Source of the DNA: Escherichia coli | GTDB taxonomy: Bacteria; Pseudomonadota; Gammaproteobacteria; Enterobacterales; Enterobacteriaceae | Length of the DNA: 64,000 nt | Reading direction: 5' to 3' (one strand) | NCBI RefSeq assembly: GCF_001677475.2 | Contig: NZ_CP015229.1 | In this document: one piece after another, positions 2,851 to 59,107 of the stretch | Layout: every line of letters begins with the position of its first letter | How positions within the stretch are numbered: position 1 is the first letter of the stretch | Position numbers and translations under genes: made by a program | The notes under the pieces: model-generated | Database searches by the model: none | Told to the model about the DNA's origin: nothing | What the model saw: the letters and a program-made list of their open reading frames with translations, nothing else

Positions 2851-2978
2851 TGAGTATGTCCGGCAGAGAGGGCTCTGCCGGATTTTACGACGTAATGGCC
2901 TGATGCGCTTACCAGGCCTATGAAATAAATCGCAAGTTATTTTGGTCAGATACAGCGTCGTATCCGATAAAAGCATTG

Positions 2979-4703: not shown

Positions 4704-5081
4704 GTTGGTTATCCAGAATCAAAAGGTGGGTTAATTATCGCATCCGGGCAGTAGTATTTTGCTTTTTTCAGAAAATAATCAAAAAAAGTTAGCGTGGTGA
4801 ATCGATACTTTACCGATTGAATTTGCATCAATTTCATTCAGGAATGCGATTCCACTCACAATATTCCCGCCATATAAACCAAGATTTAACCTTTTGAGAA
4901 CATTTTCCACACCTAAAATGCTATTTCTGCGATAATAGCAACCGTTTCGTGACAGGAATCACGGAGTTTTTTGTCAAATATGAATTTCTCCAGATACGTA
5001 AATCTATGAGCCTTGTCGCGGTTAACACCCCCAAAAAGACTTTACTATTCAGGCAATACATATTGGCTAAGGAGCAGTGAA

Positions 5082-6780: not shown

Positions 6781-8849
<2,069 letters not shown>

Positions 8850-9076
8850 TGTTTGTACTCCCAAAGGTTCGCAACAATTTGTAAGCGTGTATTCTTAAAA
8901 AAGCTCACGTTCGTCACCAGCTAAATCTGGTATGAATTTCAGCCTAAATTGTTACAAAGCATATTAAACAGCAGCTTAAGTATACAATTTATTCGGCGAA
9001 ACATTATTGATTCTGTTGATATGATCACGTTATACCCAATGTGCGCATTATCAAACAGACAAAGGGAATCAACGAG

Positions 9077-15414: not shown

Positions 15415-16308
15415 ATGAGCAAAAAGCAGAGTTCCACCCCACACGATGCGCTGTTCAAACTCTTTTTACGCCAACCGGAGACGGCACGCGATTTTCTTGC
15501 GTTTCATTTACCGGCACCCATTCACGCGCTCTGTGATATGAAAACCCTCAAGCTGGAGTCGAGCAGCTTTATTGATGACGATCTGCGTGAAAGCTATTCC
15601 GACGTGCTGTGGTCGGTGAAAACGGAACAAGGACCAGGATATATCTATTGTCTGATTGAACATCAAAGCACCTCAAACAAACTGATCGCATTTCGCATGA
15701 TGCGTTACGCCATTGCCGCAATGCAAAATCACCTTGATGCCGGATACAAAACGTTGCCGATGGTGGTGCCATTGTTGTTTTACCACGGTATTGAAAGCCC
15801 CTATCCCTATTCGCTGTGTTGGCTGGATTGTTTTGCCGATCCCAACCTGGCAAGGCAGCTTTATGCCTCTGCATTTCCGCTGATTGATGTCACCGTCATG
15901 CCTGATGATGAAATCATGCAGCACCGACGCATGGCGCTGCTGGAGTTAATTCAAAAACATATCCGTCAACGCGATCTGATGGGGCTGGTAGAGCAAATGG
16001 CCTGCTTATTAAGTAGTGGATACGCTAATGACAGACAAATCAAAGGGCTGTTTAATTACATCTTGCAAACCGGCGATGCGGTACGTTTTAACGATTTTAT
16101 CGACGGCGTTGCCGAACGTTCACCGAAACACAAGGAGAGTTTAATGACTATTGCGGAAAGATTGCGGCAGGAAGGGTTTCAGAAAGGTATACGTACCAAC
16201 GCCCTAAATATTGCCAAAACCATGCTGGATGCCGGAGTCTCTCTTGAGGACGTTCTGCGATTTACCAGCCTGACGGTTGAAGACCTTGCTGAAATAAATC
16301 ATCAATAA
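15415..16308 (+). CDS. rpnA: RpnA (YhgA), Rpn-family PD-(D/E)XK recombination-promoting nuclease
   Basis: 297-aa ORF; family recognised from sequence and position between feoC and bioH. Confidence 0.88.
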
Positions 16309-25477: not shown

Positions 25478-28189
<2,712 letters not shown>

Positions 28190-28193
28190 GTTT

Positions 28194-28219
28194 AGCCGGA
28201 TGATGCGTCGGATCCGGCT
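28194..28219. terminator. Hairpin between convergent malT and rtcA
   Basis: AGCCGGAT gatgcgtcgg ATCCGGCT inverted repeat. Confidence 0.5.
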
Positions 28220-28231
28220 TACATCTTTACA

Positions 28232-29251
<1,020 letters not shown>

Positions 29252-30478
29252 TTATCCTTTTACGCACACCACCTGACGCAGGGTGTAGATAACTTCCACC
29301 AGATCGCTTTGTGCCGCCATCACCGCATCAATATCTTTATACGCCATCGGGATTTCGTCGATCACTTCGGCATCTTTACGGCATTCCACATGCGCGGTGG
29401 CACGAATTTGATCTTCCACGCTGAACAGTTTTTTCGCTTTAGTACGGCTCATAACCCGCCCGGCACCGTGGCTGCACGAACAGAACGACTCTTCATTTCC
29501 CAGCCCACGGACGATAAAGCTTTTCGCTCCCATCGACCCTGGAATAATTCCATATTGACCAGCACGCGCAGACACCGCGCCTTTACGCGTCACGTAGATC
29601 TCTTCACCAAAGTGCTGTTCTTTTTGCACATAGTTGTGGTGACAGCTGATCTCTTCCATCGCCAGCGTTTGTGGCTGTCTGACCGTTTTCTGCGTAATGC
29701 TCTGCAACGCCGTAACCACGTTTTCCATCATCGCATCACGGTTAAGGCTGGCAAAAAGCTGCGCCCAGGCCACAGCTTTCAGGTAATCATCAAAGTATTC
29801 CGTGCCTTCCATAAAGTACGCCAGATCACGCGACGGCAACGTCTCAAGCGTTTCCTGCATCTCTTTTTGCGCCAGATCGATAAAGTAAGTCCCGATGGCG
29901 TTACCAATTCCGCGTGAACCGGAGTGCAACATAATCCACACCTGGTCCGACTCATCAAGGCAGATTTCAATAAAGTGGTTACCCGTTCCCAGCGTTCCCA
30001 GGTGTTTATAGTTGTTAGTGTTAAGGAAACGCGGATATTTTTGCGTTAACCACTGATAACCGGCTTCAAGCTCAGCCCATTTCGCATCGACGTTAACAGG
30101 CGGGTTTTCCCATGCGCCTTTATCACGTTTACAACGCCCGGTAGTACGCCCGTGCGGCACGGCAGTTTCAATGGCCTGACGCAGTTCCGCCAGGTTTTCC
30201 GGCAGATCTGCCGCCGTTAACGCGGTACGCAGTGCGTTCATTCCACAACCGATATCCACGCCCACCGCTGCAGGAATAATCGCCCCTTTGGTCGGGATCA
30301 CGCTACCAATGGTGGAACCTTTACCCAGGTGCACGTCAGGCATTACCGCAATATGTTTGAAAATAAACGGCATCTTCGCCGTATTAATAAGTTGCTGACG
30401 CGCATCGGCTTCTACCGGCACGCCTTTGGTCCACATTTTTACCGGGGCATTTTCAGTGGTCAGTAATTCGTAATTCAT
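29252..30478 (-). CDS. rtcB: RNA-splicing ligase RtcB
   Basis: 408-aa ORF; RtcB motifs (GTGNHFIEI, HNYV); sigma54 promoter upstream. Confidence 0.95.
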   Translation of the reverse strand: MNYELLTTENAPVKMWTKGVPVEADARQQLINTAKMPFIFKHIAVMPDVHLGKGSTIGSVIPTKGAIIPAAVGVDIGCGMNALRTALTAADLPENLAELRQAIETAVPHGRTTGRCKRDKGAWENPPVNVDAKWAELEAGYQWLTQKYPRFLNTNNYKHLGTLGTGNHFIEICLDESDQVWIMLHSGSRGIGNAIGTYFIDLAQKEMQETLETLPSRDLAYFMEGTEYFDDYLKAVAWAQLFASLNRDAMMENVVTALQSITQKTVRQPQTLAMEEISCHHNYVQKEQHFGEEIYVTRKGAVSARAGQYGIIPGSMGAKSFIVRGLGNEESFCSCSHGAGRVMSRTKAKKLFSVEDQIRATAHVECRKDAEVIDEIPMAYKDIDAVMAAQSDLVEVIYTLRQVVCVKG

Positions 30479-30515
30479 TTTGTTTTTCTCTTTTCATTGT
30501 TTGCTGTCCTGATAA

Positions 30516-30533
30516 TTGCAACCGTCGTGCCAG
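30516..30533 (-). promoter_or_regulatory. Sigma54 (-24/-12) promoter of rtcBA
   Basis: Minus strand reads CTGGCACgacggTTGCA, matching TGGCAC-N5-TTGCA, about 38 bp upstream of rtcB ATG and divergent from rtcR. Confidence 0.85.
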
Positions 30534-30666
30534 AAAATTAAATAAGCAGATTAATTTTTTTATTCATTGTTTTAAAAAAGATTATATCTTTACGTCCGTA
30601 ACCGGAGATTTCCCGCAAAGCCGATTTACCGATAATGAAATATCGTCTTTTATAAGGATATCTAAG

Positions 30667-32265
30667 ATGCGTAAAACAGTGGCTTTTGGCTTTGTCGGTA
30701 CCGTACTGGATTATGCCGGACGCGGCAGTCAGCGCTGGTCAAAATGGCGTCCGACACTCTGTTTATGCCAGCAAGAATCGTTGGTCATCGATCGACTGGA
30801 ATTATTGCACGACGCCCGCTCGCGCTCGCTATTTGAAACGCTTAAACGCGATATCGCCAGCGTTTCGCCAGAAACAGAAGTGCTGAGCGTTGAGATTGAA
30901 CTGCATAACCCGTGGGATTTCGAAGAGGTTTACGCCTGCCTGCATGATTTCGCCCGTGGTTACGAGTTTCAGCCAGAAAAAGAAGACTATTTAATTCACA
31001 TCACCACCGGCACCCACGTCGCGCAGATTTGCTGGTTTCTGCTGGCGGAAGCGCGTTACCTGCCCGCCCGGTTGATACAATCTTCACCTCCGCGCAAAAA
31101 AGAACAGCCGCGCGGCGCAGGTGAAGTGACGATTATCGATCTCGATTTAAGCCGTTATAACGCCATCGCCAGCCGCTTTGCCGAGGAACGCCAGCAAACG
31201 CTTGATTTTCTTAAGTCCGGCATTGCCACGCGTAACCCCCTCTTCAACCGCATGATTGAGCAGATTGAAAAAGTGGCGATTAAATCCCGCGCACCGATCC
31301 TGCTTAACGGCCCGACCGGCGCGGGTAAGTCGTTTCTGGCACGACGAATTTTCGAATTAAAACAGGCGCGGCATCAGTTTAGCGGCGCGTTTGTGGAAGT
31401 GAACTGCGCCACCTTGCGTGGCGATACCGCCATGTCGACGCTGTTTGGTCATGTAAAAGGCGCGTTTACCGGGGCGCGGGAATCTCGTGAAGGTTTATTA
31501 CGTAGCGCCAACGGCGGAATGTTGTTTCTTGATGAGATTGGCGAACTGGGCGCAGACGAACAGGCAATGCTGCTAAAAGCCATTGAAGAGAAAACCTTTT
31601 ACCCATTTGGCAGCGATCGCCAGGTGAACAGTGATTTTCAGCTTATCGCCGGAACGGTGCGCGATTTGCGCCAGCTGGTTGCCGAAGGCAAATTTCGCGA
31701 AGATCTGTACGCGCGGATCAATCTCTGGACCTTCACCCTGCCGGGTCTACGCCAGCGCCAGGAAGATATTGAACCGAACCTGGATTATGAAGTGGAGCGC
31801 CACGCCACACTCACTGGTGACAGCGTGCGTTTTAACACCGAAGCGCGGCGTGCCTGGTTGGCTTTTGCGACCTCTCCCCAGGCGACATGGCGCGGTAACT
31901 TTCGCGAACTTTCCGCCAGCGTCACGCGGATGGCCACCTTTGCCACTAGCGGACGCATCACTCTGGCCGTGGTTGAAGATGAGATAAACCGTCTGCGCTA
32001 TAACTGGCAGGAGAGCCGCCCCTCCGCGCTTACGACTTTGCTGGGCGCAGAGGCAGAAAACATCGATCTCTTCGACCGTATGCAACTGGAATACGTTATC
32101 GCTATCTGCCGCCAGGCAAAGTCGCTTTCCGCAGCCGGACGCCAGCTTTTTGACGTTTCGCGCCAGGGCAAAGCCAGCGTCAATGACGCGGATCGGCTAC
32201 GCAAATACCTGGCGCGTTTTGGTCTGACGTGGGAAGCCGTGCAGGATCAGCACAGCTCCAGTTGA
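30667..32265 (+). CDS. rtcR: RtcR, sigma54-dependent activator of rtcBA
   Basis: 532-aa ORF; AAA+ sigma54-activator motifs GPTGAGKS and GAFTGA; divergent from rtcB. Confidence 0.95.
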
Positions 32266-33005
32266 ATATGGTGGTCCGTCAGCACCTGCATCACGCTTAC
32301 TGGCGGCGGGGCGTCGGTGTAGACGGCATCTACCATGCTGATGCTACCCATATTGACCATCGCGTTACGGCTAAATTTCGAGTGATCGACAACCAGCATA
32401 ACGTGGCGCGAGTTCTCAATAATGGCGCGTTTGGTGCGAACTTCGTGGTAATCGAACTCCAGCAGCGAGCCGTCGCTATCGATGCCGCTGATCCCCAGAA
32501 TACCGAAATCAAGGCGGAACTGGGAGATAAAATCGAGCGTCGCTTCGCCTATGATCCCACCATCGCGGCTACGTAATTCGCCACCGGCGAGAATAATACG
32601 AAAATCTTCTTTTACCATCAACGTGTTAGCGACGTTGAGATTGTTGGTGACAATGCGCAAATTGCTGTGATTAAGCAGCGCGTGCGCCACCGCTTCCGGG
32701 GTGGTGCCGATATCGATAAACAGCGTCGAGCCGTTGGGGATTTGCTCCGCCACTTTGCGGGCAATACGCTCTTTTTCTTCGGTCTGGGTGGCTTTGCGAT
32801 CGTGCCACGGCGTGTTAACCGAACTGGAAGGTAGCGCCGCGCCGCCATGATGGCGCAGGATCAGGTTTTGCTCCGCCAGCTCGTTGAGGTCGCGACGAAT
32901 AGTCTGCGGGCTGACGGAGAAGTGCTCCACCAGTTCCTCGGTACTGACATAACCCTGCTGTTTAACCAGTTCGATAATACCGTTGTGACGTTGTGTTTGT
33001 TTCAT
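32247..33005 (-). CDS. glpR: GlpR, DeoR-family repressor of the glp regulon
   Basis: 252-aa ORF; N-terminal DeoR HTH; 3' end overlaps the rtcR 3' end by 19 nt. Confidence 0.95.
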   Translation of the reverse strand: MKQTQRHNGIIELVKQQGYVSTEELVEHFSVSPQTIRRDLNELAEQNLILRHHGGAALPSSSVNTPWHDRKATQTEEKERIARKVAEQIPNGSTLFIDIGTTPEAVAHALLNHSNLRIVTNNLNVANTLMVKEDFRIILAGGELRSRDGGIIGEATLDFISQFRLDFGILGISGIDSDGSLLEFDYHEVRTKRAIIENSRHVMLVVDHSKFSRNAMVNMGSISMVDAVYTDAPPPVSVMQVLTDHHIQLELC

Positions 33006-33021
33006 TTATAAATCCCTGGAA

Positions 33022-33864
<843 letters not shown>

Positions 33865-33896
33865 TTATTCCACACAAAAGGGGACAGTATAAAGCG

Positions 33897-34301
<405 letters not shown>

Positions 34302-34361
34302 TTATACATATCACTCTAAAATGTTTTTTCAATGTTACCCAAAGCGCGATTCTTTGCTAAT

Positions 34362-34379
34362 ATGTTCGATAACGAACAT
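34362..34379. promoter_or_regulatory. GlpR operator palindrome in the glpE/glpD divergent control region
   Basis: ATGTTCGATAACGAACAT, perfect inverted repeat, 34 bp upstream of glpD ATG. Confidence 0.7.
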
Positions 34380-34412
34380 TTATGAGCTTTAACGAAAGTG
34401 AATGAGGGCAGC

Positions 34413-35918
34413 ATGGAAACCAAAGATCTGATTGTGATAGGTGGCGGCATCAATGGTGCTGGTATCGCGGCAGACGCCGCTGGACGCGGTTTATCCGTGC
34501 TGATGCTGGAGGCGCAGGATCTCGCTTGTGCGACCTCTTCCGCCAGTTCAAAACTCATTCACGGTGGCCTGCGCTACCTTGAGCACTATGAATTCCGCCT
34601 GGTCAGCGAGGCGCTGGCTGAACGTGAAGTGCTACTGAAAATGGCCCCGCATATCGCCTTCCCGATGCGTTTTCGCCTGCCGCATCGTCCGCATCTGCGC
34701 CCGGCGTGGATGATTCGGATTGGTCTGTTTATGTACGATCATCTGGGTAAACGCACCAGCCTGCCGGGATCAACCGGTTTGCGTTTTGGCGCAAATTCAG
34801 TGTTAAAACCGGAAATTAAGCGCGGATTCGAATATTCCGACTGTTGGGTAGACGACGCCCGTCTGGTACTCGCCAACGCCCAGATGGTGGTGCGTAAAGG
34901 CGGTGAAGTGCTTACCCGGACTCGTGCCACTTCTGCTCGCCGCGAAAACGGCCTGTGGATTGTGGAAGCGGAAGATATCGATACCGGCAAAAAATTCACC
35001 TGGCAGGCGCGCGGCCTGGTTAATGCTACCGGCCCGTGGGTGAAACAGTTCTTCGACGACGGGATGCATCTGCCTTCGCCTTATGGCATTCGCCTGATCA
35101 AAGGCAGCCATATTGTGGTGCCGCGTGTGCATACCCAGAAGCAAGCCTACATTCTGCAAAACGAAGATAAACGTATTGTGTTCGTGATCCCGTGGATGGA
35201 CGAGTTTTCCATCATCGGCACCACCGATGTGGAATACAAAGGCGATCCAAAAGCAGTGAAGATTGAAGAGAGTGAAATCAATTACCTGCTGAAAGTGTAT
35301 AACGCGCACTTTAAAAAACAGTTAAGCCGGGACGATATCGTCTGGACCTACTCCGGCGTGCGCCCGCTGTGTGATGATGAGTCCGATTCGCCGCAGGCTA
35401 TCACTCGTGATTACACCCTTGATATCCATGATGAAAACGGCAAAGCCCCGCTGCTGTCGGTATTCGGCGGTAAGCTGACCACCTACCGCAAACTGGCGGA
35501 ACACGCGCTGGAAAAACTGACGCCATATTATCAGGGCATTGGTCCGGCGTGGACGAAAGAGAGCGTGCTGCCGGGCGGTGCCATTGAAGGCGACCGTGAC
35601 GATTACGCCGCGCGTCTGCGCCGCCGTTACCCATTCCTGACCGAATCGCTGGCACGTCATTACGCACGCACTTACGGCAGCAACAGCGAGCTGTTGCTCG
35701 GCAATGCAGGGGCGATAAGCGACCTCGGGGAGGATTTCGGTCATGAGTTCTACGAAGCGGAGCTGAAATACCTGGTGGATCACGAATGGGTCCGCCGCGC
35801 CGACGATGCCCTGTGGCGTCGCACAAAACAAGGAATGTGGCTGAATGCGGAACAACAATCTCATGTGAGTCAGTGGCTGGTGGAGTATACGCAGCAGAAG
35901 TTGTCGCTGGCGTCGTAA
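34413..35918 (+). CDS. glpD: Aerobic glycerol-3-phosphate dehydrogenase
   Basis: Track ORF 34398..35918; start at ATG 34413 (METKDLIVIGGGINGAGIA, FAD fold); 501 aa. Confidence 0.96.
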   Translation: METKDLIVIGGGINGAGIAADAAGRGLSVLMLEAQDLACATSSASSKLIHGGLRYLEHYEFRLVSEALAEREVLLKMAPHIAFPMRFRLPHRPHLRPAWMIRIGLFMYDHLGKRTSLPGSTGLRFGANSVLKPEIKRGFEYSDCWVDDARLVLANAQMVVRKGGEVLTRTRATSARRENGLWIVEAEDIDTGKKFTWQARGLVNATGPWVKQFFDDGMHLPSPYGIRLIKGSHIVVPRVHTQKQAYILQNEDKRIVFVIPWMDEFSIIGTTDVEYKGDPKAVKIEESEINYLLKVYNAHFKKQLSRDDIVWTYSGVRPLCDDESDSPQAITRDYTLDIHDENGKAPLLSVFGGKLTTYRKLAEHALEKLTPYYQGIGPAWTKESVLPGGAIEGDRDDYAARLRRRYPFLTESLARHYARTYGSNSELLLGNAGAISDLGEDFGHEFYEAELKYLVDHEWVRRADDALWRRTKQGMWLNAEQQSHVSQWLVEYTQQKLSLAS

Positions 35919-35925
35919 GGATGAT

Positions 35926-35948
35926 GCCCGGTTGAAGTGCAACCGGGC
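35926..35948 (+). terminator. Hairpin terminator after glpD (shared with convergent island operon)
   Basis: GCCCGGTTGaagtgCAACCGGGC followed by TATTTGG. Confidence 0.6.
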
Positions 35949-35969
35949 TATTTGGATTCCTTAGACTAT

Positions 35970-36575
35970 TTATTGTAAATAATTGAATAACGGCCCCTGA
36001 GCTAAAATCGCCAAACTTAAGCACGTTACCCACTCACCCCATTTCTGCCTCTGGCTTCTATTTTTGCTACACCAATGGCAATAATATCCCAATGCAAAAC
36101 CAACCTGTGCACTAATCGGGCCGACAAAATCAGTCCACGACTGCGGCCAAAAAGGGGAAAAATTCAGGGGAAGCCAGACAAACGTCAGAAAGAAATTTCG
36201 GATATTTTCCAGCAACGCTGATTTCTCTGGAGAAATATAAAGAATGAAATTCGAGAGAATTAACCAGAAATAGACCGGAGAAAAGACCAGCCAGCAATGC
36301 AGTCTGTTTTTTAATTCAGGAGGCGTTCTGCGGGAGAATTGCCAACCGATGCCCCACATTACACTGAAAAAAAATGCATATTCAACCATTAACTCAAGTT
36401 GTAATTCCTGAAGAGAAATACGCACAACCAGGAGCGGAAAGGAGAATGTTATTTCTGCCAGAAAAGTTAACGTGAATATAAGTACGGCTAAGACAATAAC
36501 CGTCGGCCATACCAATACTGGCACGATAACAAAACCGAGAATTACAGGGGGAATATAAAGCCGGAATTTAATCAT
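35970..36575 (-). CDS. Hypothetical small polytopic membrane protein (last gene of uncharacterised four-gene operon)
   Basis: 201-aa ORF with several hydrophobic helices; AGGAAA 7 nt upstream of ATG; 2-nt gap from the upstream gene's stop. Confidence 0.6.
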   Translation of the reverse strand: MIKFRLYIPPVILGFVIVPVLVWPTVIVLAVLIFTLTFLAEITFSFPLLVVRISLQELQLELMVEYAFFFSVMWGIGWQFSRRTPPELKNRLHCWLVFSPVYFWLILSNFILYISPEKSALLENIRNFFLTFVWLPLNFSPFWPQSWTDFVGPISAQVGFALGYYCHWCSKNRSQRQKWGEWVTCLSLAILAQGPLFNYLQ

Positions 36576-36577
36576 TT

Positions 36578-37345
36578 TTATTTTCCTGGTGATTCGGATG
36601 ATGCGTCATACATCGCGCATAAACACTCATCAATCATCCAGTCGTCTACCCAGACCTGATGCTGTGTACCCTGTTCTGGCTGCTTTGGTGGGTTCTCAAT
36701 CGCCTGCCGCGCGCGTTCTTTCAGGATGGATTGATTGTTGAAGGCCCAGGCATTGATTTGGGCGGTAATGGCATTATCGATATCGTCATGGTTATCTCTG
36801 ATATAACCTTCACGATACTGGTTCAATAAACAGGCAAGTGAAGCTGCCGACCAAAAGCCGGGAATTGAATTAACGGCATCAAGCAACGGCGCAATGGCGA
36901 TATCGGCACGGAAAAACATTTCCAGCATATACTGTAATTCGACAGCTTCATCGCCGGATACCCAATCAGCCATATACTGGCAGGCAAATCGCTGCAATAT
37001 TGCCCGTTCATCCGCACGCCAGTTTTCTTTGTTGGCAAGGTTGATACGGCGCAGAGAAAAAACTTCGTGAATATTGTCAAAATACCCCTGTGCAACAAAT
37101 TCCAGTAAACGCGGAAGAAAATAGCGGACCTCATCGCTATTTTGCGGATCGGGTCCTGGGCTACTATTCCAGGCATTGATTAAGGAATACGAGATCGCTC
37201 GTAACGATGTACTCCGTAATACCTTTTGTTCCTGCTGACTCAGGCAATATTCACAACAAACCACAAATTTCTGCGGCACCGGATAGCGACGAAAAATATG
37301 ATAAATCTGCTCAATTAATGCCTGCATGGCGGGGCTGGGTTGCAT
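36578..37345 (-). CDS. Hypothetical soluble protein (third gene of uncharacterised operon); start ambiguous
   Basis: Track ORF 36578..37372 (264 aa); preferred start is the ATG at 37343-37345 (MQPSPAMQALIEQ, 255 aa) preceded by GAGGGGG and 2 nt after the upstream stop. Confidence 0.55.
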   Translation of the reverse strand: MQPSPAMQALIEQIYHIFRRYPVPQKFVVCCEYCLSQQEQKVLRSTSLRAISYSLINAWNSSPGPDPQNSDEVRYFLPRLLEFVAQGYFDNIHEVFSLRRINLANKENWRADERAILQRFACQYMADWVSGDEAVELQYMLEMFFRADIAIAPLLDAVNSIPGFWSAASLACLLNQYREGYIRDNHDDIDNAITAQINAWAFNNQSILKERARQAIENPPKQPEQGTQHQVWVDDWMIDECLCAMYDASSESPGK

Positions 37346-37347
37346 AA

Positions 37348-38055
37348 TTACCCCCTCGCCCGCTGGTCGCATGTAAATGGTTGATAAACCAAACGAGCAT
37401 TCGCCGCATTCAGGCGAATAATGGCACTACGAGAGAGGGAAAAGCTGGGGCGAATGCAATAATTACAGTCCCGACAGCTATCCTCTGTGCAATTTTCCAC
37501 TGAGTAATGACGCGCGTAGAGTTTCAGTTCAGCCTGCTTATCGCGAAATCCGCGTAAACTGTTATCGCTATGAAATTTCCAGGCTTCTTTAAACACCTGA
37601 AAGATATAGACATCCTCAATCCAGGAGTCACATTTTTTAAGCGGGCGCTTTGCTATGATCACCCGCTCCGGGTTTAGCATCGCCGTAAAATGAACGGTGA
37701 AGTCATTTGTCGTATTCAGGTCACATTGAACATCTGGTACATCACTGATATAGGGGTCAAATCCAAAATCAGCACCACAGGCACAAAGACGACCGATCGT
37801 GGTGGTATCGAGGGAAAATCCCGGCCATACATTGCTGGACGTTAAGCCAATATTTAATGTGACATTATATCGAAGCAATCCCTCAAGACCGTCAGCACCG
37901 ACGAACTTTTCCCCTTCATCCAGGACCTGATTAATGAGTTGTTGAACAATACCTTCATCCCAGTATGCCGATTTGCAGTTGGCAATCGTAATATCCACGC
38001 CTGTGAAAGGATCAGTACCAGCGAGGCTTGCAAATAATGTATTAACTAATTCCAT
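37348..38055 (-). CDS. Hypothetical Cys-rich protein (second gene of uncharacterised operon)
   Basis: 235-aa ORF with 10 Cys including cluster C-x4-C-x2-C-x2-C (CTEDSCRDCNYC); 14 nt downstream of the first gene. Confidence 0.6.
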   Translation of the reverse strand: MELVNTLFASLAGTDPFTGVDITIANCKSAYWDEGIVQQLINQVLDEGEKFVGADGLEGLLRYNVTLNIGLTSSNVWPGFSLDTTTIGRLCACGADFGFDPYISDVPDVQCDLNTTNDFTVHFTAMLNPERVIIAKRPLKKCDSWIEDVYIFQVFKEAWKFHSDNSLRGFRDKQAELKLYARHYSVENCTEDSCRDCNYCIRPSFSLSRSAIIRLNAANARLVYQPFTCDQRARG

Positions 38056-38069
38056 TTTTATTACCCGCC

Positions 38070-39587
38070 TTAATGCAACGTTTTATACATCGGCACATAA
38101 CCCACGTCTTCTACCAAACTCTGCCCCTGCGGCGTTAAAAACCATTCAACCAGTTTTTGTGTTTCTGACGTCATATTTTCCCGCGTTACCATAAAGGCAT
38201 CGACGATATAGGGATATTTGCCATTGCGAATGTTTTCCGCAGTCGGTGCAATACCGTTAATCGCTAACAATTTGATATTCTTATCGGCATTCATTTGTGT
38301 TGCGTAATAGCGGAAGGTATAACCTATTGCGTTGTTTGTATTACGGTATTCGGCAACGACTTTAATCATTCCCTCCATCACACTTGCCACTTCGGTTTCC
38401 TGCGGCGAGATCATACGGACATTTTTCATGACCTGTAATTGCATCACCGTCTGACTGCCAGAGTCTTCCGGGCGTTGCCAGGTCTGGATCTCCTGATCGT
38501 TACCGCCAACAGTACGCCAGTTGGTAATTGCGCCACTAAAAATGTCTCGCACTTGTTGTTCAGTCAGGGAATTGACTGGATTATCAGCATTGACGATAAA
38601 AACAAATGCTTCACGGGCAAAGGGGGTGTACAGCAAAGTGACACCAGATTCCTTTGCACGTTTTTTCTGCCCACCGGAAGGTTGCGCCACGAAAATAATA
38701 TCAGCATCACCCTTAACGATTTTGTTATATGCTTCTGGCGTACGAGAGTTATCCAGATAATCCCAAACGTGAAAATCCTCTGGTATTATGCTTAACGCAT
38801 AAAAGGCAGAAGCATAAATTGGGTACGCCGCCGTGGCACCATCGATTCGCGGCCAGTTTTGCGTAAACTGAATTTGCGGTTTGCCACGCAGCGGCGTCAG
38901 TCGATTATTGAGTTTATCGGGTCGCCAGGCCCAGATATCAATATTTTCGCGTACACCAACACCAGGGTTTTGCTGCTTATATAAATGGGCCTGATACCCA
39001 GCGACAATACCAAGTAAGAGAAGTAGAAACAGGAGTAAGTTACGGCAACGTAGCCCGGACGTGCCGGTTAAAGGATGCCTTGTCGGCCAGCCGTATCCCA
39101 GCGAAAAACTGATATGCGTTCCAACGGGAATAATGACTATCCACCAGTACTCACCACCGACTAATGAGACTAACAAAACACCCAGCCAGGGAAGCATAAG
39201 ATCTGCCAACCAACCTGAAACCATCTGGCGAAATTGATAATCTGCCAGATGTAGCGTGATTATCCAGCCAACCAGGATTAATAAAGCAGGAACTAAAAAA
39301 AGACATTGTCGCCAGGCGGCTATTTCTCTGTTTTCTGGTGCGCTATCGCCCGCCCACACTCGCCCAGAGAAAAATAGCAGTAATGCGCCCAGCGTCAGCA
39401 TAAAGACGTTAAGTAGAAGATAAATTGTTGGCGTAAAGAGTAAATTGCAAAACTCAAGAATAGCGGCAAGCCCGGCCCCCAGCATGGCAATAACCGCCGC
39501 CAAAAACTGCGCCAGAATGGGGATGCCGAAAAAAGTCATTACCAGCGAGGTCAAAATCCATTTTCTGTTTTGCATTATTCTTTCCAT
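38070..39587 (-). CDS. Membrane-anchored PstS-like (PBP-like) substrate-binding-domain protein (first gene of uncharacterised operon); probably the intact form of K-12 pseudogene yzgL
   Basis: 505-aa ORF; N-terminal ~190 aa with multiple hydrophobic helices; C-terminal part with phosphate-binding-protein-like motifs (LTEQQVRDIFSGAITNWRTVGG); alternative start at Met5 (39575). Confidence 0.7.
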   Translation of the reverse strand: MERIMQNRKWILTSLVMTFFGIPILAQFLAAVIAMLGAGLAAILEFCNLLFTPTIYLLLNVFMLTLGALLLFFSGRVWAGDSAPENREIAAWRQCLFLVPALLILVGWIITLHLADYQFRQMVSGWLADLMLPWLGVLLVSLVGGEYWWIVIIPVGTHISFSLGYGWPTRHPLTGTSGLRCRNLLLFLLLLLGIVAGYQAHLYKQQNPGVGVRENIDIWAWRPDKLNNRLTPLRGKPQIQFTQNWPRIDGATAAYPIYASAFYALSIIPEDFHVWDYLDNSRTPEAYNKIVKGDADIIFVAQPSGGQKKRAKESGVTLLYTPFAREAFVFIVNADNPVNSLTEQQVRDIFSGAITNWRTVGGNDQEIQTWQRPEDSGSQTVMQLQVMKNVRMISPQETEVASVMEGMIKVVAEYRNTNNAIGYTFRYYATQMNADKNIKLLAINGIAPTAENIRNGKYPYIVDAFMVTRENMTSETQKLVEWFLTPQGQSLVEDVGYVPMYKTLH

Positions 39588-39604
39588 TCTTTCTGAATGG
39601 CGAA

Positions 39605-39610
39605 ATTATA
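39605..39610 (-). promoter_or_regulatory. Candidate -10 hexamer for the uncharacterised four-gene operon
   Basis: Minus strand TATAAT about 18-23 nt upstream of the first ATG and downstream of the glgP terminator; no good -35. Confidence 0.35.
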
Positions 39611-39659
39611 CTCCCCGAGTCCCCTTGCCCCTTCTGGACACTTTTCCGAAATGATGGCG

Positions 39660-39684
39660 AAAAAAACGGGACCCTTTGGCCCCG
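39660..39684 (-). terminator. Rho-independent terminator after glgP
   Basis: Minus strand CGGGGCCaaagGGTCCCG (one G-U pair) followed by seven T. Confidence 0.75.
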
Positions 39685-39702
39685 CTCTATTTATTAGTGA
39701 AA

Positions 39703-42168
<2,466 letters not shown>

Positions 42169-43602
42169 CTATTTCAAGCGATAGTAAAGCTCACGGTACG
42201 ACTTCGCCGCGACCTGCCAGCTAAAATCCATTGCCATAGCCTGACGTTGCACAAACCGCCACAGTGAAGGACGGGACCACAGTACAAAAGCACGTCGAAT
42301 AGCCCGTAACAGCGACCAGGCATTACTATCTTCAAAGACAAACCCACTGGCGACGCCATCTGCAAGGTTCTCAAGAGAACAGTCAGAAACCGTATCAGCA
42401 AGCCCACCGGTGCGCCGCACTAACGGCAGCGTACCGTACTTCAATCCATAAAGTTGCGTTAAGCCGCACGGTTCAAAACGGCTGGGCACCAGAATGACGT
42501 CCGCGCCGCCCATAATGCGATGCGAAAATGCTTCGTGATAGCCAATCTGAACGCCCACCTGGCCGGGGTATTCCGCTGCCGCCGCAAGGAAACCTTCCTG
42601 CAGCACCGGATCGCCCGCGCCGAGTAGCGCCAACTGCCCGCCCTGCTCCAGAAGACCCGGTAAGGCTTCCAGCACCAGGTCGAGACCTTTCTGGCTGGTC
42701 AGACGGCTCACCACTGCAAAAAGCGGCACTTTATCGTCAACCTTAAGCCCCATTGCGATTTGTAACTGGCGCTTATTTTCCGCTTTATCTTCCAACGTAT
42801 CGCGGGTGTAGCGCGAGGCCAACAGTAAGTCCGTCTCTGGACTCCAGATTTTCTCGTCCACGCCGTTCAGTACGCCTGAAAGACGCCCTTCACGGTGACG
42901 CTGTTGCAACAGACCTTCCATACCGTAGGCAAACTGCGGTTCGGTGATCTCGCGAGCGTAGGTTGGACTGACCGCCGTAATGTGATCGGCATAGTACAGA
43001 CCGGCCTTCAGGAAAGAGATTTGTCCGTTGAATTCCAGCCCATGAATATTAAAGAATGACCATGGCAATTGGATGTCATTCATATGATGTGCATAAAACA
43101 TGCCTTGATAGGCCAGGTTGTGCACAGTAAACACCGACTTCGCCGGACGCCCGCGCGCCGCCAGATACGCAGGCGCAAGGCCTGCATGCCAGTCGTGCGC
43201 ATGCACCACATCAGGACGCCAGAATGGGTCAAGACCGCTGGCCATTTCTGCCCCAACCCACCCCAGCAGCGCAAAACGCAATACGTTGTCGGTATAGGCA
43301 AATAAGTTGGTATCGTGATACGGGCTTCCCGGACGATCATAGAGATGCGGCGCGTCAATCAGGTAAATGCCAACCCCGTTGTAATGACCGAACAACAGCG
43401 TGATATGTCCGGCGAAGGTATCACGACGGGATACTACCTGCGCATCGGTCACGCCACGGCGAATATCGGGAAATGCAGGCAACAGTACGCGAGCGTCAAC
43501 GCCGTCTGCGATTTGTGCTGCGGGTAATGCCCCAATAACATCAGCCAGACCGCCGGTTTTAAGCAGCGGGAACATCTCTGAACATACATGTAAAACCTGC
43601 AT
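42169..43602 (-). CDS. glgA: Glycogen synthase
   Basis: 477-aa ORF; N-terminal KTGGLADV motif. Confidence 0.97.
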
Positions 43603-44897
43603 TATCGCTCCTGTTTATGCCCTAACTTCCGTAGCATTTCGCGCGTTACCAGCACGATGCCTTCTTCTGAACGATAGAAACGACGTGCATCTTCCTCTGC
43701 GTTTTCACCAATCACCATGCCTTCCGGAATAACACAAGCACGATCGATGACGCAGCGGCGCAGACGGCACGAGCGACCTACCCATACTTCCGGTAACAAT
43801 ACGGCGGAATCAATGTTGCAGAATGAATTCACGCGAACGCGCGAGAACAGAACGGACTGCACCACCACCGAGCCGGAGATTACACAACCGCCGGAAACCA
43901 GTGAGTTAAGGGTCATCCCGTGGCTACCGGAGCGATCCTGCACGAATTTCGCTGGCGGTAATGATTCATTGTAGGTGCGAATTGGCCAATTGCGATCGTA
44001 CATATCCAGTTCCGGCACCACAGAGGCCAGATCGAGGTTCGCTTTCCAGTAAGCTTCCAGCGTACCCACATCGCGCCAGTACGGCTCGGCATCCGGGTCG
44101 GATTGTACGCAAGAGAGCGGGAACGGGTGCGCATAGGCCAGACCGGCTTCGGTGATCTTGGGAATCAAATCTTTGCCAAAGTCGTGGCTGGAGTTCTCAT
44201 CGCGATCGTCTTCTTCCAGCAGTTCATACAGATAGTCGGCGTCAAAGACGTAGATACCCATACTCGCCAGAGATTTGCTCGGATCGTTCGGCATTGACGG
44301 TGGGTTAGCAGGTTTTTCAACGAATTCGATAATTTTATCGTTCTCATCAACCGCCATAACACCAAATGCGGAGGCTTCTTCAATCGGTACTGGCATACAA
44401 GCAACGGTGCAACGTGCGCCTTTTTCGACGTGATCGATAAGCATACGCGAGTAGTCTTGCTTGTAGATATGGTCGCCCGCCAGGATTACCACGTATTCCG
44501 CTTTATAACGGCGGATAATATCGAGGTTTTGGGTGACCGCATCTGCGGTGCCGCGATACCAGTTTTCCCCTTTCATTCTCTGCTGTGCTGGCAGCAGATC
44601 GACAAACTCGTTCATTTCTTCATTGAAGAATGACCAGCCGCGCTGAATGTGCTGCACCAGAGTGTGGGACTGGTACTGGGTGATCACGCCCATACGACGG
44701 ATCCCGGAGTTGATGCAGTTAGACAGCGCAAAGTCAATAATGCGGAACTTACCGCCGAAGTGTACGGCCGGTTTTGCTCGCTTATTGGTTAAATCCTTCA
44801 GGCGGGTACCACGTCCTCCCGCCAGTATCAGGGCAACAGATTTCAATGGCAGCTGGCGCGCCAACATTAAGTGATCGTTCTTCTCTAAACTAACCAT
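43602..44897 (-). CDS. glgC: Glucose-1-phosphate adenylyltransferase
   Basis: Track ORF 43602..44933; start at ATG 44895-44897 ([17 protein letters not shown]) with AAGGAG upstream; 431 aa. Confidence 0.96.
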
Positions 44898-44975
44898 GAC
44901 TAACTCCTTTTTTATCATCTCTGGAACACACACAATCCGTGTGCAGGTCCCTGCCAGACAGCCGTAATCACTGGG
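44898..44975 (-). promoter_or_regulatory. glgC 5' leader, overlapping the 3' end of glgX; known target of CsrA
   Basis: Leader reads ...CACACGGAUUGUGUGUGUUCCAGAGAUGAUAAAAAAGGAGUUAGUC-AUG with GGA motifs in a hairpin loop and at the Shine-Dalgarno. Confidence 0.55.
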
Positions 44976-46888
44976 TTATCCTCTCCAGCGAATGGGGGAA
45001 TGGCGTGCCACTCCCCAGCAGGTAAAACAATCTCTGTTACCTCAAGCGTGGCGTTAATTGCGATCAAAAAGCGATCCGAGAGCAGAATTTGCAGCTGTTT
45101 CGGCCCGTTTTGCCACTCATCCGTGCTTAAAGGTTGAGCATATCGATTTAGCCAACGGACATTGCCGTCGCCTTCTTCCCACCAGCGATTCTCCACCAAA
45201 GCGGGAATGCGCTTGCGCAGATGGATTAACGCGGCGGTAAATGCGGTTAAACCACTGCTTGCCTGCGACCAGTCCAACCAGGTTAATTGGTTATCCTGAC
45301 AGTAGGCATTGTTATTGCCATGCTGGCTGTGACCATGTTCGTCACCGGCCAGTAACATCGGCGTACCCTGGGAGAGCAACAACGTTGTTAACAGGGCGTG
45401 AATGCTGTCGCGCCGCCGTTCAACCAGGTCAAGAGTACCGCCTAACCCTTCTTTACCATGATTGTTACTGTAATTGTTGTTGGTCCCGTCGCGATTTTCT
45501 TCTCCGTTTGCTTCATTGTGTTTATGGTTGAAACAAACGCAGTCGCGAAGCGTAAAACCGTCATGCGCGGTGACGAGATTAATCGCGGCACTCGGCAGAC
45601 GACCATTACGTTTAAAAACATCGCTGGAGGCAGCAAAACGCCCGGCAAACGCCCCCAGAGGCAAATCATAATGTAGCCAGAAACGACGGGCAGCATCGCG
45701 GAAATGATCGTTCCACTCGGCAAACAGCGGCGGGAAATTTCCCACCTGATAACCACCAGGAGCGATATCCCACGGTTCAGCAATTAACTTCACCTGCGAG
45801 AGCACCGGGCAGTTCTGGATAGCGGTAAACAACGGCGCATCCTGACGGAACTCTGGCGTACGGCCCATGACTGCCGCCAGATCAAAGCGGAAACCATCGA
45901 CGTGGCAGGTTTCTACCCAATAACGCAGGCAGGCGCTGGCATAATCCACCACCGCCGGATGACTCAAATTGAGCGTGTTGCCACAACCGGTCCAGTTGTG
46001 ATAATCGCCGTCTTCTCTTATCCAATAATAGCTACGGTTGTCGATCCCACGCAGCGAGAATAACGGGCCGTCGAGGTCCAGTTCCGCACTATGGTTGAGC
46101 ACGATATCAAGAATGACTTCGATACCCGCTTTATGCAGTGCTTTGATTGCATCGCGAAACTCATCCAGCGCCGTTTCTGGCGAGCAGGCATACGCCGGAT
46201 GCAGCGCAAACATCGCCACCGGGTTATAACCCCAGTAGTTACTTAGACCCATACGTTGCAGGCGTGGTTCGCTGGCAAACTGCGCCACCGGCAGCAGTTC
46301 CAGCGCGGTAATGCCCAACTGTTTCAAATAGTTGATCATCACCGGATGCCCCAGGGCTTTATAAGTGCCACGGATCTCGACTGGGATCTCCGGGTGCAGG
46401 TACGTTAATCCTTTGACATGGGCTTCATAAATGATGGTGCTGCCCCACGGCGTGCGCGGCGGGGCATCATCTTCCCAGTCATAGTGATCAACCACCACTA
46501 CGCATTTCGGCGCAATGGCGGCGTTGTCGCGATAGTCAGGTTCATTATGACCGGCGTGCAGCAGCGGGTTATCTTTAAACTCCCCGTCAATTTGCCGCGC
46601 GCAAGGATCAATCAACAACTTCGCCGGGTTAAAGCGATGCCCCTCGGCGGGTTGCCAGGGGCCATGAACGCGATAACCATAACGCAAACCCGGGCGCGCA
46701 TCCGGCAGATAACCGTGCCAAATGTCGCCACTGTGCCCTGGCAAGTCATAGCGATGTTCCTGGCCATTGGCGTCAAAGACACACAGTTCTACCCGCTCGG
46801 CATGAGCGGAGAAAAGTGTGAAGTTGACGCCCTGACCGTCGTAATGCGCGCCGAGGGGAGCGGGTTTGCCAATGGCGAGTTGTGTCAT
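44915..46888 (-). CDS. glgX: Glycogen debranching enzyme
   Basis: 657-aa ORF; GH13 family; overlaps glgB stop by 4 nt. Confidence 0.96.
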
Positions 46889-56607: not shown

Positions 56608-56705
56608 TCGCACTTGTCCAACACTTTTTGCAAAAAAATGCATTTGACTCGCATTTGAAAGTCAATGATGTTGAAAGGGACATTTACCCCAAAGAGGACA
56701 AAGGA

Positions 56706-57194
56706 ATGAGTGAGATAGTGATACGCCACGCAGAAACACGGGATTACGAGGCCATCAGGCAGATTCACGCCCAGCCGGAGGTGTATTGCAACACACTACA
56801 ACTACCTCATCCTTCGGAAGGCTGGTGGCCAGAAAGATTGAAAGATCGCCAGGGGTTTAAACAACTGGTTGCCAGCATTGATGGCATCGTGGTGGGTCAT
56901 CTTTTCATTGAGGCTTATCAAGGCCCACGCCGTAGTCATGTTGCAACTTTTGGTATCTGTGTTGACTCCCGCTGGCACAACCGCGGCGTCGCCAGCGCCC
57001 TGATCCGCGAATTGATTGAAATGTGCGACAACTGGTTACGGATAGATCGTATTGAGTTGACGGTGTTTGCGGATAACGCCCCGGCAATCGCCGTCTATAA
57101 AAAATTCGGCTTTCACATAGAAGGCACCGGCAAAAATTACGCTTTTCGTAATGGTGAATATGTCGATGCATATTATATGGCGCGGGTGAAATAA
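56706..57194 (+). CDS. yhhY: YhhY, GNAT-family N-acetyltransferase
   Basis: Track ORF 56628..57194; start at ATG 56706 (MSEIVIRHAETRDY); 162 aa; the N-terminal extension in the track overlaps the ryhB promoter. Confidence 0.9.
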   Translation: MSEIVIRHAETRDYEAIRQIHAQPEVYCNTLQLPHPSEGWWPERLKDRQGFKQLVASIDGIVVGHLFIEAYQGPRRSHVATFGICVDSRWHNRGVASALIRELIEMCDNWLRIDRIELTVFADNAPAIAVYKKFGFHIEGTGKNYAFRNGEYVDAYYMARVK

Positions 57195-57254: not shown

Positions 57255-58988
57255 TTAATAACCCGCCGTTAAATCATCCACCGAGCGCGGGTCAGATGCG
57301 CCGTACAACTCGCCGTCCGGCCCAACCATAATGCTTTGTGTGCTGCCCATCGCCTCTTTCAGCGCTACTTTCTGACCTTTTGCTTCCAGCAGCTTGAGCG
57401 TATCCGGGCTAAATCCTTTCTCGACACGCAGCTCGTCCGGCAACCACTGATGGTGGAAACGCGGTGCATTGGTCGCTTCGGCGACATTCATACCATAATC
57501 GATGCTATTCACCACCATTTGCAGCACGGTAGTGATGATCCGGCTACCGCCAGGGCTACCGGTGACCAGCCAGGTTTTACCGTCTTTCACCACAATGGTT
57601 GGTGACATCGACGACAGCGGACGTTTATTCGGCCCGACGGCGTTGGCATCACCGCCCACCAGCCCGTAAACGTTCGGTACGCCAGGTTTGGCGGAGAAAT
57701 CATCCATTTGGTTATTAAGCAGAATACCGCTATCACCCGCGACAATGCCCGTACCGAAGGTGGTGTTCAGCGTATAGGTCACCGCTACCGCGTTGCCGTC
57801 TTTATCCACCACTGAGTAATGGGTAGTTTGATTACTCTCATAAGGCGCAAGCTTGCCGGGGCGAATTTCGCTGGATGGCTTCGCTTTATTGATATCGATT
57901 TGATCGGCAATGGATTTGGCATAGGCTTTATTGGTCAGCGCCTGCCACGGCACTTTGACAAAATCCGGGTCGCCAAGATATTCCGAGCGGTCGGCGTAGG
58001 CGTATTTCTCAGCTTCAGCCATGATTTGCATCGCGTCGGCACTGCCAAAGCCGTATTTCTTCATATCGAAGTTTTCCAGAATATTGAGGATTTGTACGAT
58101 ATGGATCCCGCCGGAGGATGGCGGTGGCATGGAGTAAACCTGATACCCGCGATAATCGCCGCTTATTGGTGTGCGTTCGACCGCTTTATACGCCGCTAAA
58201 TCTTCTTTGGTGATCAAGCCACCGTTTTTCTGCATCTCCTGGGCAATCTGTTCCGCTATCGTGCCTTTGTAGAATTCGTCCGGGCCGTTTTCGGCAATCA
58301 TCTCCAGGCTCTTTGCCAGGTTCGCCTGCACCAGCTTGTCGCCCTTTTTCAGCGGCTCGCCCTCTTTCCAGAAGATAGCCTTGCTGTTTTCGTGGTTCGG
58401 CAGCACTTCACTGCCGTAGGTTTTGAGATCGTCTGCCAAAGCATCGTTAACGATAAAACCATCGCGTGCCAGTTTAAACGCCGGCTGCACGACTTTATTC
58501 AGCGGCATAGTGCCGTACTTATCCAACGCCAGCGAGAAACCTGCGACCGTACCGGGCGTGCCGGAAGCCAGATGCGAAGTGAGTGATTTTTTGCTGTCCG
58601 GGTTGCCCTGGTCATCAAGGAACATATCGCGGGTCGCTTTGGCGGGTGCCATTTCGCGGAAATCAATCGCCGTGGTGTTGCCATCTTTAGTGCGGATCAG
58701 CATAAAACCACCGCCGCCCAGATTCCCCGCCTGCGGATGCGTTACCGCCAGCGCATACCCCACCGCCACGGCGGCATCAACGGCATTACCACCTTCTTTA
58801 AGGATATTCACCCCCACCTGAGTGGCAGTAGCATCCACAGACGCCACCATCCCCTGTTTCGCGCGTACCGGATGAAAGACATCTTCCTCCACGCCATAAG
58901 AAACAGGAGGCGCGGCGGCGGCGCTAAAACAACTTCCTGAGAGCAGAGCAGCAATGGCCACCCGGCGTAAAAACGTCGGTTTTATCAT
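57255..58988 (-). CDS. ggt: Gamma-glutamyltranspeptidase
   Basis: Track ORF 57255..59015; start at MIKPTFLRRVA (signal peptide); catalytic Thr in QTTHYSVVD; 580 aa. Confidence 0.96.
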   Translation of the reverse strand: MIKPTFLRRVAIAALLSGSCFSAAAAPPVSYGVEEDVFHPVRAKQGMVASVDATATQVGVNILKEGGNAVDAAVAVGYALAVTHPQAGNLGGGGFMLIRTKDGNTTAIDFREMAPAKATRDMFLDDQGNPDSKKSLTSHLASGTPGTVAGFSLALDKYGTMPLNKVVQPAFKLARDGFIVNDALADDLKTYGSEVLPNHENSKAIFWKEGEPLKKGDKLVQANLAKSLEMIAENGPDEFYKGTIAEQIAQEMQKNGGLITKEDLAAYKAVERTPISGDYRGYQVYSMPPPSSGGIHIVQILNILENFDMKKYGFGSADAMQIMAEAEKYAYADRSEYLGDPDFVKVPWQALTNKAYAKSIADQIDINKAKPSSEIRPGKLAPYESNQTTHYSVVDKDGNAVAVTYTLNTTFGTGIVAGDSGILLNNQMDDFSAKPGVPNVYGLVGGDANAVGPNKRPLSSMSPTIVVKDGKTWLVTGSPGGSRIITTVLQMVVNSIDYGMNVAEATNAPRFHHQWLPDELRVEKGFSPDTLKLLEAKGQKVALKEAMGSTQSIMVGPDGELYGASDPRSVDDLTAGY

Positions 58989-59107
58989 CGTTATTCTCCA
59001 GAGATTAAGGGGCAACCCCAGCTAAGCCTGGTATATAACTCTGAATTAATCCTGATGATTGCAGGAAAGGAGTAAACTTAAAGAATATCTTCAGAGGAGG
59101 ATACGCG

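Follow-up and report, generated by a model that had tools for sequence, protein, structure and literature searches.

An AT-rich four-gene cassette between glpD and glgP of Escherichia coli: probably a fast-evolving resident of a variable site and not a recent import

The O-antigen rfb region together with the neighbouring gnd gene forms a hypervariable locus, the divergence of which spills into the flanking core genes. The auf chaperone-usher fimbrial operon, located at glpD..glgP, is known from extraintestinal pathogenic Escherichia coli. The latter site is already known as a variable region of the E. coli chromosome: a 2026 comparison of strain BEN2908 lists it as "GR 24, glpD..glgP" and names the auf operon there (PMC12928451), and the seven-gene fimbrial operon encountered at this site in the present analysis is that published operon. 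In the 64-kb stretch of E. coli DNA analysed here (64,000 nucleotides of contig NZ_CP015229.1, hereafter the window), the gap between glgP and glpD is filled by four co-oriented open reading frames (ORFs) of the minus strand, g4-g3-g2-g1, which make up an AT-rich island at positions 35950-39690. That such a segment is missing from strain K-12 is ordinary and already known; the site has been recognised, and thousands of genomes carry annotations of these genes. The point of interest is that this module is fixed in position and yet evolves very fast, with allele classes within one species that are as divergent as those between species. We consider it likely that the segment is a resident accessory cassette of the glpD-glgP variable site and not a recently imported mobile island, and this confidence refers to the evolutionary and compositional account, not to the function of the genes.

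Over the whole interval the G+C content of the island is 45.5%, compared with 52.8% elsewhere in the window. Among all 3.7-kb stretches of the 64 kb it ranks lowest, the next lowest independent stretch having 49.4%, and the 0.1% of 3741-nucleotide segments (step 10 nucleotides) that are equally low all represent the island itself. A likelihood fit with two change points across positions 30000-46000 placed the borders at 35950 and 39850, with fitted G+C values of 53.2, 45.4 and 52.6% to the left of, within and to the right of the island, respectively (log-likelihood gain 33.5; binomial z -9.0). These borders match the stop codons of glpD (35918) and glgP (39703), the right edge being softer because glgP itself has a G+C content of only 51%. 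An earlier note on this DNA had described an AT-rich island with a shift in composition at the gene boundaries, and had named sliding-window G+C and codon-adaptation calculations as the means to check it and a G+C within the normal variation of the flanking genes as the outcome that would speak against it. Both calculations bear the description out, and the island falls outside the variation of its flanks. The four hand counts of 60-nucleotide lines given in the same note were reproduced as well (35.0, 35.0, 46.7, given there as 45%, and 63.3%). The figure of about 35%, however, holds for two extreme lines only and not for the island as such, the real deficit of which is 7-8 points and not about 28.

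The G+C content of the four island ORFs ranges from 41.6 to 47.4%, g1 being the most AT-rich (41.6%). With values of 0.44-0.48, they have the four lowest G+C fractions at third codon positions (GC3) among the 45 ORFs of the window (mean of the other 41 ORFs 0.61, minimum 0.513; exact rank probability 6.7e-6), and their relative codon-adaptation index is 0.51-0.61 as compared with a mean of 0.69. Meanwhile the G+C fraction at second positions (GC2, 0.37-0.41) is unchanged. Since the deficit is largest at the third codon position, smaller at the first and absent at the second, the low G+C would seem to result from the general mutational bias towards AT where codon usage is under weak selection, as might be expected of dispensable, fast-evolving genes with weak codon adaptation. 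An excess of hydrophobic residues was also considered as the main cause of the AT-richness and was rejected: the G+C at second positions is normal, the shortfall peaks at third positions, and the soluble g2 and g3 show it to the same extent as the membrane proteins.

The cassette is not confined to E. coli. All enterobacterial homologues with a context examined (on an ENA scaffold, in a Pseudocitrobacter metagenome-assembled genome (MAG), Klebsiella sp. MISC125, Salmonella enterica, Superficieibacter sp. and E. whittamii) are located between glgP and glpD, and the order glgP > g4 (1-3 copies) > g3 > g2 > g1 < glpD recurs in the tblastn results for E. whittamii, Salmonella enterica, Klebsiella sp., Pseudocitrobacter and Superficieibacter, individual lineages having lost or added genes. 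The flanking GlgP and GlpD proteins of other genera share 89-93% amino acid sequence identity with those of the window, compared with 50-54% for g4, 54-72% for g3, 48-71% for g2 and approximately 31% for g1, so that the cassette proteins are about five times more diverged than their neighbours. The Cys, Trp and Pro motifs nevertheless remain invariant across genera down to 48-50% identity. In all five other-genus loci measured (E. whittamii was left out) the G+C of the cassette is below that of the flanks, with a GC3 difference of -0.07 to -0.18, and low G+C is therefore a standing property of the locus and not a mark of recent arrival. The phylogenetic distribution, proposed earlier as a further check, thus turned out to be wide and syntenic across genera and argues against recent acquisition. 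Read most simply, the data place the cassette at this site already before the genera in question separated, evolving several times faster than its neighbours and being AT-rich throughout. Hence, one must bear in mind that low G+C in this case marks a segment as accessory and weakly constrained, and does not date its acquisition.

Within E. coli, some part of the island was found in 5195 of the 5426 complete genomes (96%), at least 80% of it is held by 2430, and 231 genomes show no match at all. No plasmid-borne copies were detected among the E. coli records searched, all 5228 places being chromosomal. The states of the site were estimated from an evenly spaced sample of 60 E. coli records, and the shares are accordingly rough proportions: approximately one third of the records contain the full cassette, about 13% a shortened cassette or one interrupted by the insertion sequence (IS) IS1, about 12% g1-g3 beside the seven-gene chaperone-usher operon, about 17% g4, in some cases accompanied by a second PstS gene that lacks the membrane part and by a divergent g1, and about 22% a stub of the K-12 type (yzgL). 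Internal stops, frameshifts and IS1 insertions occur in the cassette of some strains. Individual cases of such ongoing decay are an internal stop in g2 of strain 1EC213 (locus positions 5881-6648) and a frameshift in g4 of strain 2014C-3061 (7377-8886).

The window itself is E. coli: its flanks are 97-99.7% identical to K-12, the identity to E. coli is 98.6% for feoB-yhgF and 99.3% for glgX-B-C, and the exact g1, g2, g3 and GlpD proteins are present on an E. coli record (ANO91345-8). The island, in contrast, is only 90-94% identical to the best of the 5426 genomes, and judged by these identities it is a rare E. coli allele. An origin from another Escherichia species, which an island identity of 93-94% to complete E. 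coli genomes might suggest, was rejected in view of the flank identities and the exact proteins. K-12 aligns to the window through glpD up to its stop codon and resumes at position 39354, so that the promoter region of g4 is kept together with its start codon and 78 codons at the 5' end (39354-39587), annotated as yzgL; the 3.4 kb in between are replaced by about 265 bp with repeats of the repetitive extragenic palindromic (REP) type. The product of yzgL (b3427, "putative uncharacterized protein YzgL") has the same start region as g4, with the first 74-78 codons or so being homologous, but it is a stub of 93 amino acids, and the 3' end of its gene enters unrelated sequence beside the REP repeats. 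As far as sequence comparison goes, yzgL is a deletion remnant of g4 and not a gene family of its own; the literature on yzgL and ybbD contained nothing on function. Since K-12 keeps the g4 promoter and the first 78 codons, its state is that of a deletion. Of the two possibilities raised in the earlier note, that K-12 lost the cassette or that it never fully acquired it, the former is supported by the retained 5' end and promoter region of g4 with REP repeats in place of the rest, and the latter is unlikely.

No tRNA gene, Rfam match, integrase or IS element was found in or at the island, its borders are devoid of flanking direct repeats other than short ones at chance level, and none of the four ORFs matches a mobility family of Pfam or NCBIfam. 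Thus, of the properties by which recently acquired genomic islands are recognised, the locus displays atypical composition and codon usage, and displays neither signs of mobility nor a patchy distribution.

The island differs from its surroundings not only in composition. Nucleotide diversity among eight E. coli alleles, calculated per 400 nucleotides, amounts to 3-9.5% in the island, compared with 0.2-0.7% in glgP-glgA-glgC and 0.7-4% on the glpD-rtcR side, where the highest flank values are found in rtcR and the 3' end of glpD. The divergence extends into both neighbouring genes: in the 3' third of glpD (35001-35918) the identity to K-12 drops to 93.8%, from 97.9% in 34001-35000, and at the 3' end of glgP (39703-40400) the identity to other E. 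coli is 97.4-98.1%, compared with 99.1-99.3% in 40401-42150. Alleles of g4 within E. coli differ by 7.5-10.4%, a range that includes the 8.9% separating E. coli from E. whittamii at glgP. Two classes of g1 exist in E. coli, with nucleotide identities of 97 and 78%, and these do not follow the classes of g4, which makes the cassette mosaic. The comparisons support homologous recombination as the route by which alleles, and also alternative gene sets, are exchanged horizontally at this site: the differences between alleles are deep and mosaic, and they reach into glpD and glgP at their 3' ends. In some strains the place is taken by the auf operon or by a second PstS gene. Exchange of alleles among lineages may also help to maintain the low G+C.

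With regard to selection, one pair was analysed, namely the window and its closest relative. The nonsynonymous rate (dN) of the island genes is 0.027-0.040 and its ratio to the synonymous rate (dN/dS) 0.12-0.52, compared with a dN of at most 0.0095 and a dN/dS of at most 0.08 in ten flanking genes of the same pair. The ratio is highest in g1 (0.52); it is 0.18 in g3, and g4, g3 and g2 together span 0.12-0.31. The island genes are under weak purifying selection.

Such a pattern raises the possibility that the cassette is the target or the agent of a biological conflict, be it the entry of phages, colicins or contact-dependent toxins or a role in immunity and defence, in which case the polymorphism would be kept by diversifying or frequency-dependent selection and the AT-richness would follow from rapid turnover as a side effect. 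Allelic divergence within the species that equals the divergence between species, mosaic alleles with two classes of g1, and a spill of divergence into the flanks such as is seen at loci with long-lived alleles would all be expected under this explanation, but relaxed constraint together with recombination could yield the same pattern. Likewise, dN is raised 4- to 40-fold, yet dN/dS is below 1 for every gene of the pair analysed. Between one and three g4 paralogues occur, the Superficieibacter cassette contains an inserted helicase-nuclease gene, and cassettes of other genera carry a lipoprotein related to K-12 YbbD, the gene of which follows an orphan Rhs toxin fragment. However, the similarity between g3 and YbbD is marginal (25 bits against a cut-off of 373), the island proteins have no PADLOC match, and no toxin, Rhs, contact-dependent inhibition (CDI) or type VI secretion system (T6SS) gene is located in or next to the cassette of the window. 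On this evidence, an involvement in conflict seems rather doubtful.

It is still less probable that the genes are decaying remnants devoid of current function, with low G+C and divergence arising from neutral drift under AT-biased mutation. K-12-type deletions in about one fifth of the genomes, internal stops, frameshifts and IS1 insertions in others and the dN/dS of 0.52 for g1 could be read in this way, but the window and roughly one third of E. coli genomes have the four ORFs in intact form, the ratios of 0.12-0.31 for g4, g3 and g2 point to constraint, the Cys, Trp and Pro motifs are invariant across genera, and synteny has been kept since the genera split. Recent horizontal acquisition, the explanation put forward in the earlier note, by which certain E. 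coli lineages gained a foreign AT-rich cassette by insertion and K-12 obtained part of it at most, draws on the G+C of 7-8 points below the flanks, the lowest GC3, the low codon adaptation, the alternative imported sets hosted by the site (such as the more AT-rich auf operon with a GC3 of 0.35) and the helicase-nuclease gene inserted in the Superficieibacter copy, but is very unlikely and largely refuted, given that 96% of E. coli genomes (5195 of 5426) keep at least a fragment, that the same order and site are found in six lineages with divergence scaling with that of the flanks, that the K-12 state with its retained g4 promoter and first 78 codons is a deletion, and that signs of mobility are lacking and 5228 of 5228 places are chromosomal.

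A resident accessory cassette therefore remains the account we prefer. Three considerations weigh against it: the cassette is dispensable, as its frequent pseudogenes show; its low G+C may go back to an ancient foreign origin; and repeated re-import from a common AT-rich pool may also produce a deficit across genera.

The coordinates of the island and of its immediate neighbours are listed in Table 1.

Table 1. The cassette, its flanking genes and intergenic elements (positions within the 64-kb window).
Feature	Position	Strand	Basis
glpD, aerobic glycerol-3-phosphate dehydrogenase, left flank	34413..35918	+	aligns to K-12 glpD; exact protein in E. coli is ANO91345
G+C-rich hairpin between the convergent stops of glpD and g1	35926..35948	.	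terminator scan
g1, polytopic membrane protein, 201 amino acids	35970..36575	-	
g2, cytoplasmic all-alpha protein, 255 amino acids	36578..37345	-	
g3, 235 amino acids, CxxCxxxC motif	37348..38055	-	
g4, 505 amino acids (502 from the ATG at 39578), membrane and PstS-family domains	38070..39587	-	
Intergenic region glgP-g4	39588..39702	-	read directly from sequence
glgP, glycogen phosphorylase, right flank	39703..42150	-	aligns to K-12 glgP

The hairpin downstream of glpD, GCCCGGTTG-AAGTG-CAACCGGGC, has a stem of nine pairs, seven of them G-C, and is followed by a T-rich tail; it is probably a bidirectional terminator common to glpD and g1. At the opposite end, the region between glgP and g4 contains a terminator-like hairpin, GCGGGGCC-AAA-GGGTCCCG, followed by TTTTTTT and then by GAGTATAATTTCGCC. 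A perfect TATAAT hexamer (39611-39606) about 20 nucleotides upstream of the first g4 ATG (39587), read by eye, represents a putative promoter. The consensus scan reported neither this hairpin nor the hexamer, its sole match in the region being a weaker TCGCCA/AATAAT pair. The intergenic region is kept in K-12 and is 98-99% identical to that of the compared E. coli strains with four-gene cassettes.

Of the four proteins, only g4 can be assigned to a described family. Its N-terminal part of about 205 amino acids is a hydrophobic polytopic membrane domain, and its C-terminal 250 amino acids belong to PBP_like_2 (PstS family), passing the Pfam threshold (E=6e-30, 105 bits against a cut-off of 27) and matching solved PstS proteins (E=1e-18); the score against the PstS model TIGR02136 (121.2 bits) is below the cut-off of 206.6. 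The loop ahead of the last membrane helix is strongly positive, and on the basis of the positive-inside rule and of the behaviour of known PstS proteins, the PstS-like domain is predicted to be periplasmic. As compared with PstS, the binding protein of PstSCAB, g4 keeps the R-x3-S-G-[ST] anion-binding stretch, the motif being partially conserved. It differs in being fused to the polytopic domain, which has no fold match, and in having no pstC-, pstA- or pstB-like genes nearby.

The protein g1 has no match in Pfam, NCBIfam or PADLOC. A homologue of 183 amino acids from another genus matches residues 5-183 of g4 at a marginal E=8e-4, the direct BLASTP comparison of g1 with g4 is not significant (E=0.21), and a GxxxxFxLGY motif is common to both proteins. 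Thus g1 could be a stand-alone relative of the N-terminal membrane domain of g4, the link being weak, indirect and marginal.

Conserved CCxYC and WMIDECLC motifs are found in g2, the translation of which may also start at an upstream ATG (37372), giving 264 amino acids. Its homologues form 57 clusters among 5.8 billion proteins and are members of a larger, uncharacterised family (965 representatives). Searches of Pfam and NCBIfam gave no match for g2, the family profile search against PDB and the fold comparison gave none either, and an NCBIfam scan of 41 members of its family was likewise negative. Assignment of a function through guilt by association was discarded, as the distant relatives lack recurrent neighbours. 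The sole relative outside Enterobacteriaceae in the scan of species-representative genomes, 33% identical, comes from a Rhodoferax MAG, where it is divergent from rtcR (locus positions 2292-5576); in E. coli, rtcR lies about 4 kb from the cassette, but this is a single case and may be a coincidence.

The homologues of g3 (33 clusters among 5.8e9 proteins) are all from Enterobacteriaceae. No Pfam or NCBIfam family was matched above threshold and no PDB match was returned by the family profile search. The NCBI annotation labels some E. coli g3 orthologues as "YbbD family protein", but the score against the respective model NF007301 is 25.2 bits, covers residues 7-49 only and stays far below the cut-off of 373; the K-12 ybbD reading frame matches the 139-amino-acid lipoproteins of the Klebsiella and Salmonella cassettes, not g3. 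A homology between g3 and g2 was considered and dropped at a profile-profile probability of 1.5%. None of the four island proteins has a match in PADLOC-DB v2 at E<=0.01. By these searches, three of the four cassette families are without a Pfam or NCBIfam match above the curated cut-off or a significant match to a solved structure.

A function can be proposed only tentatively, and the proposal is one that we hold to be possible but not probable: g4 and g1 might assemble in the inner membrane into a complex for binding a phosphate-like ligand. In such an arrangement, the PstS-like domain of g4, facing the periplasm and binding oxyanions, would be anchored by a membrane domain of a novel type, of which g1 would provide a second copy, and the Cys-rich cytoplasmic g3 and g2 would partner the complex. 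Several negative results speak against it. No ABC_tran or BPD_transp genes are present in the cassette at any locus examined, no fold match was found for the membrane domain of g4, and the distant members of the g2 family are located in unrelated neighbourhoods with no recurrent partner and no toxin gene. A wider picture, which we regard as speculative and rather unlikely, is that of a locus-fixed membrane system of Enterobacteriaceae, in which a novel membrane fold would occur twice, once carrying a PstS-like sensor or binding domain in the periplasm and once on its own, together with two new Cys-rich cytoplasmic proteins, all of them kept as long-lived mosaic allele classes under diversifying or frequency-dependent selection; such a system may serve as an entry route or a barrier for phages, colicins and contact-dependent toxins. 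In any case, the four-gene module is a reasonable candidate for work on envelope-associated conflict or phosphate-related sensing.

The cassettes of other genera carry some additional genes. In Superficieibacter sp. 1612_C1, a superfamily-1 helicase of 935 amino acids (AAA_11/AAA_12) with a C-terminal, nuclease-like DUF2726 domain is encoded inside the cassette, between two g3 paralogues (locus positions 3456-6263), and looks like a defence-type gene using this site. The 139-amino-acid lipoproteins of the Klebsiella and Salmonella cassettes (7705-8124 and 7702-8121 of the respective loci) have an LTAC lipobox and are absent from the window. Their N-terminal half matches the K-12 ybbD pseudogene (K-12 locus positions 6141-6631), which directly follows the orphan Rhs fragment ylbH; the "YbbD family" label that NCBI places on g3 orthologues does not rest on this similarity.

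Elsewhere in the window, the lowest G+C of the genes outside the island (47.3%) belongs to an rpnA/yhgA-like gene (Transposase_31) at 15415-16308. Identity to K-12 is only about 90% in the segment 16001-17000, which takes in the 3' end of this gene and the bioH junction and forms a second local peak of divergence. Another peak is located about 7 kb from the island, in the rtcA region (28001-29000), which is about 93% identical to K-12 and to E. coli mip270_04, with neighbours at 96-99%. Further to the right, a yhhY-like GCN5-related N-acetyltransferase (GNAT) gene at 56628-57194 is directly followed by ggt (57255-59015, minus strand). In mip270_04 a tssD(yhhZ)-yrhA-yrhD-yrhB segment lies between these two genes, and the alignment with that strain ends at window position 57194, which suggests that the window lacks this second variable segment.

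Of the described systems, the auf operon of GR 24 is the closest in position, as it occupies the same chromosomal site, where auf strains keep g1-g3 beside glpD or only a stub. It is also AT-rich, and with a GC3 of 0.35 even more so than the cassette. The window, in contrast, lacks fimbrial genes and has the four-gene g4-g1 cassette, which is not described in the BEN2908 comparison (PMC12928451). The comparison with rfb and gnd concerns the mode of evolution. Although no surface-polysaccharide function, or other function with an obvious selective agent, is identifiable at the glpD-glgP site, the two loci resemble each other in the peak of diversity, in the deeply diverged mosaic alleles, in the decay of divergence over approximately 1 kb, here into glpD and glgP, and in the low G+C content.

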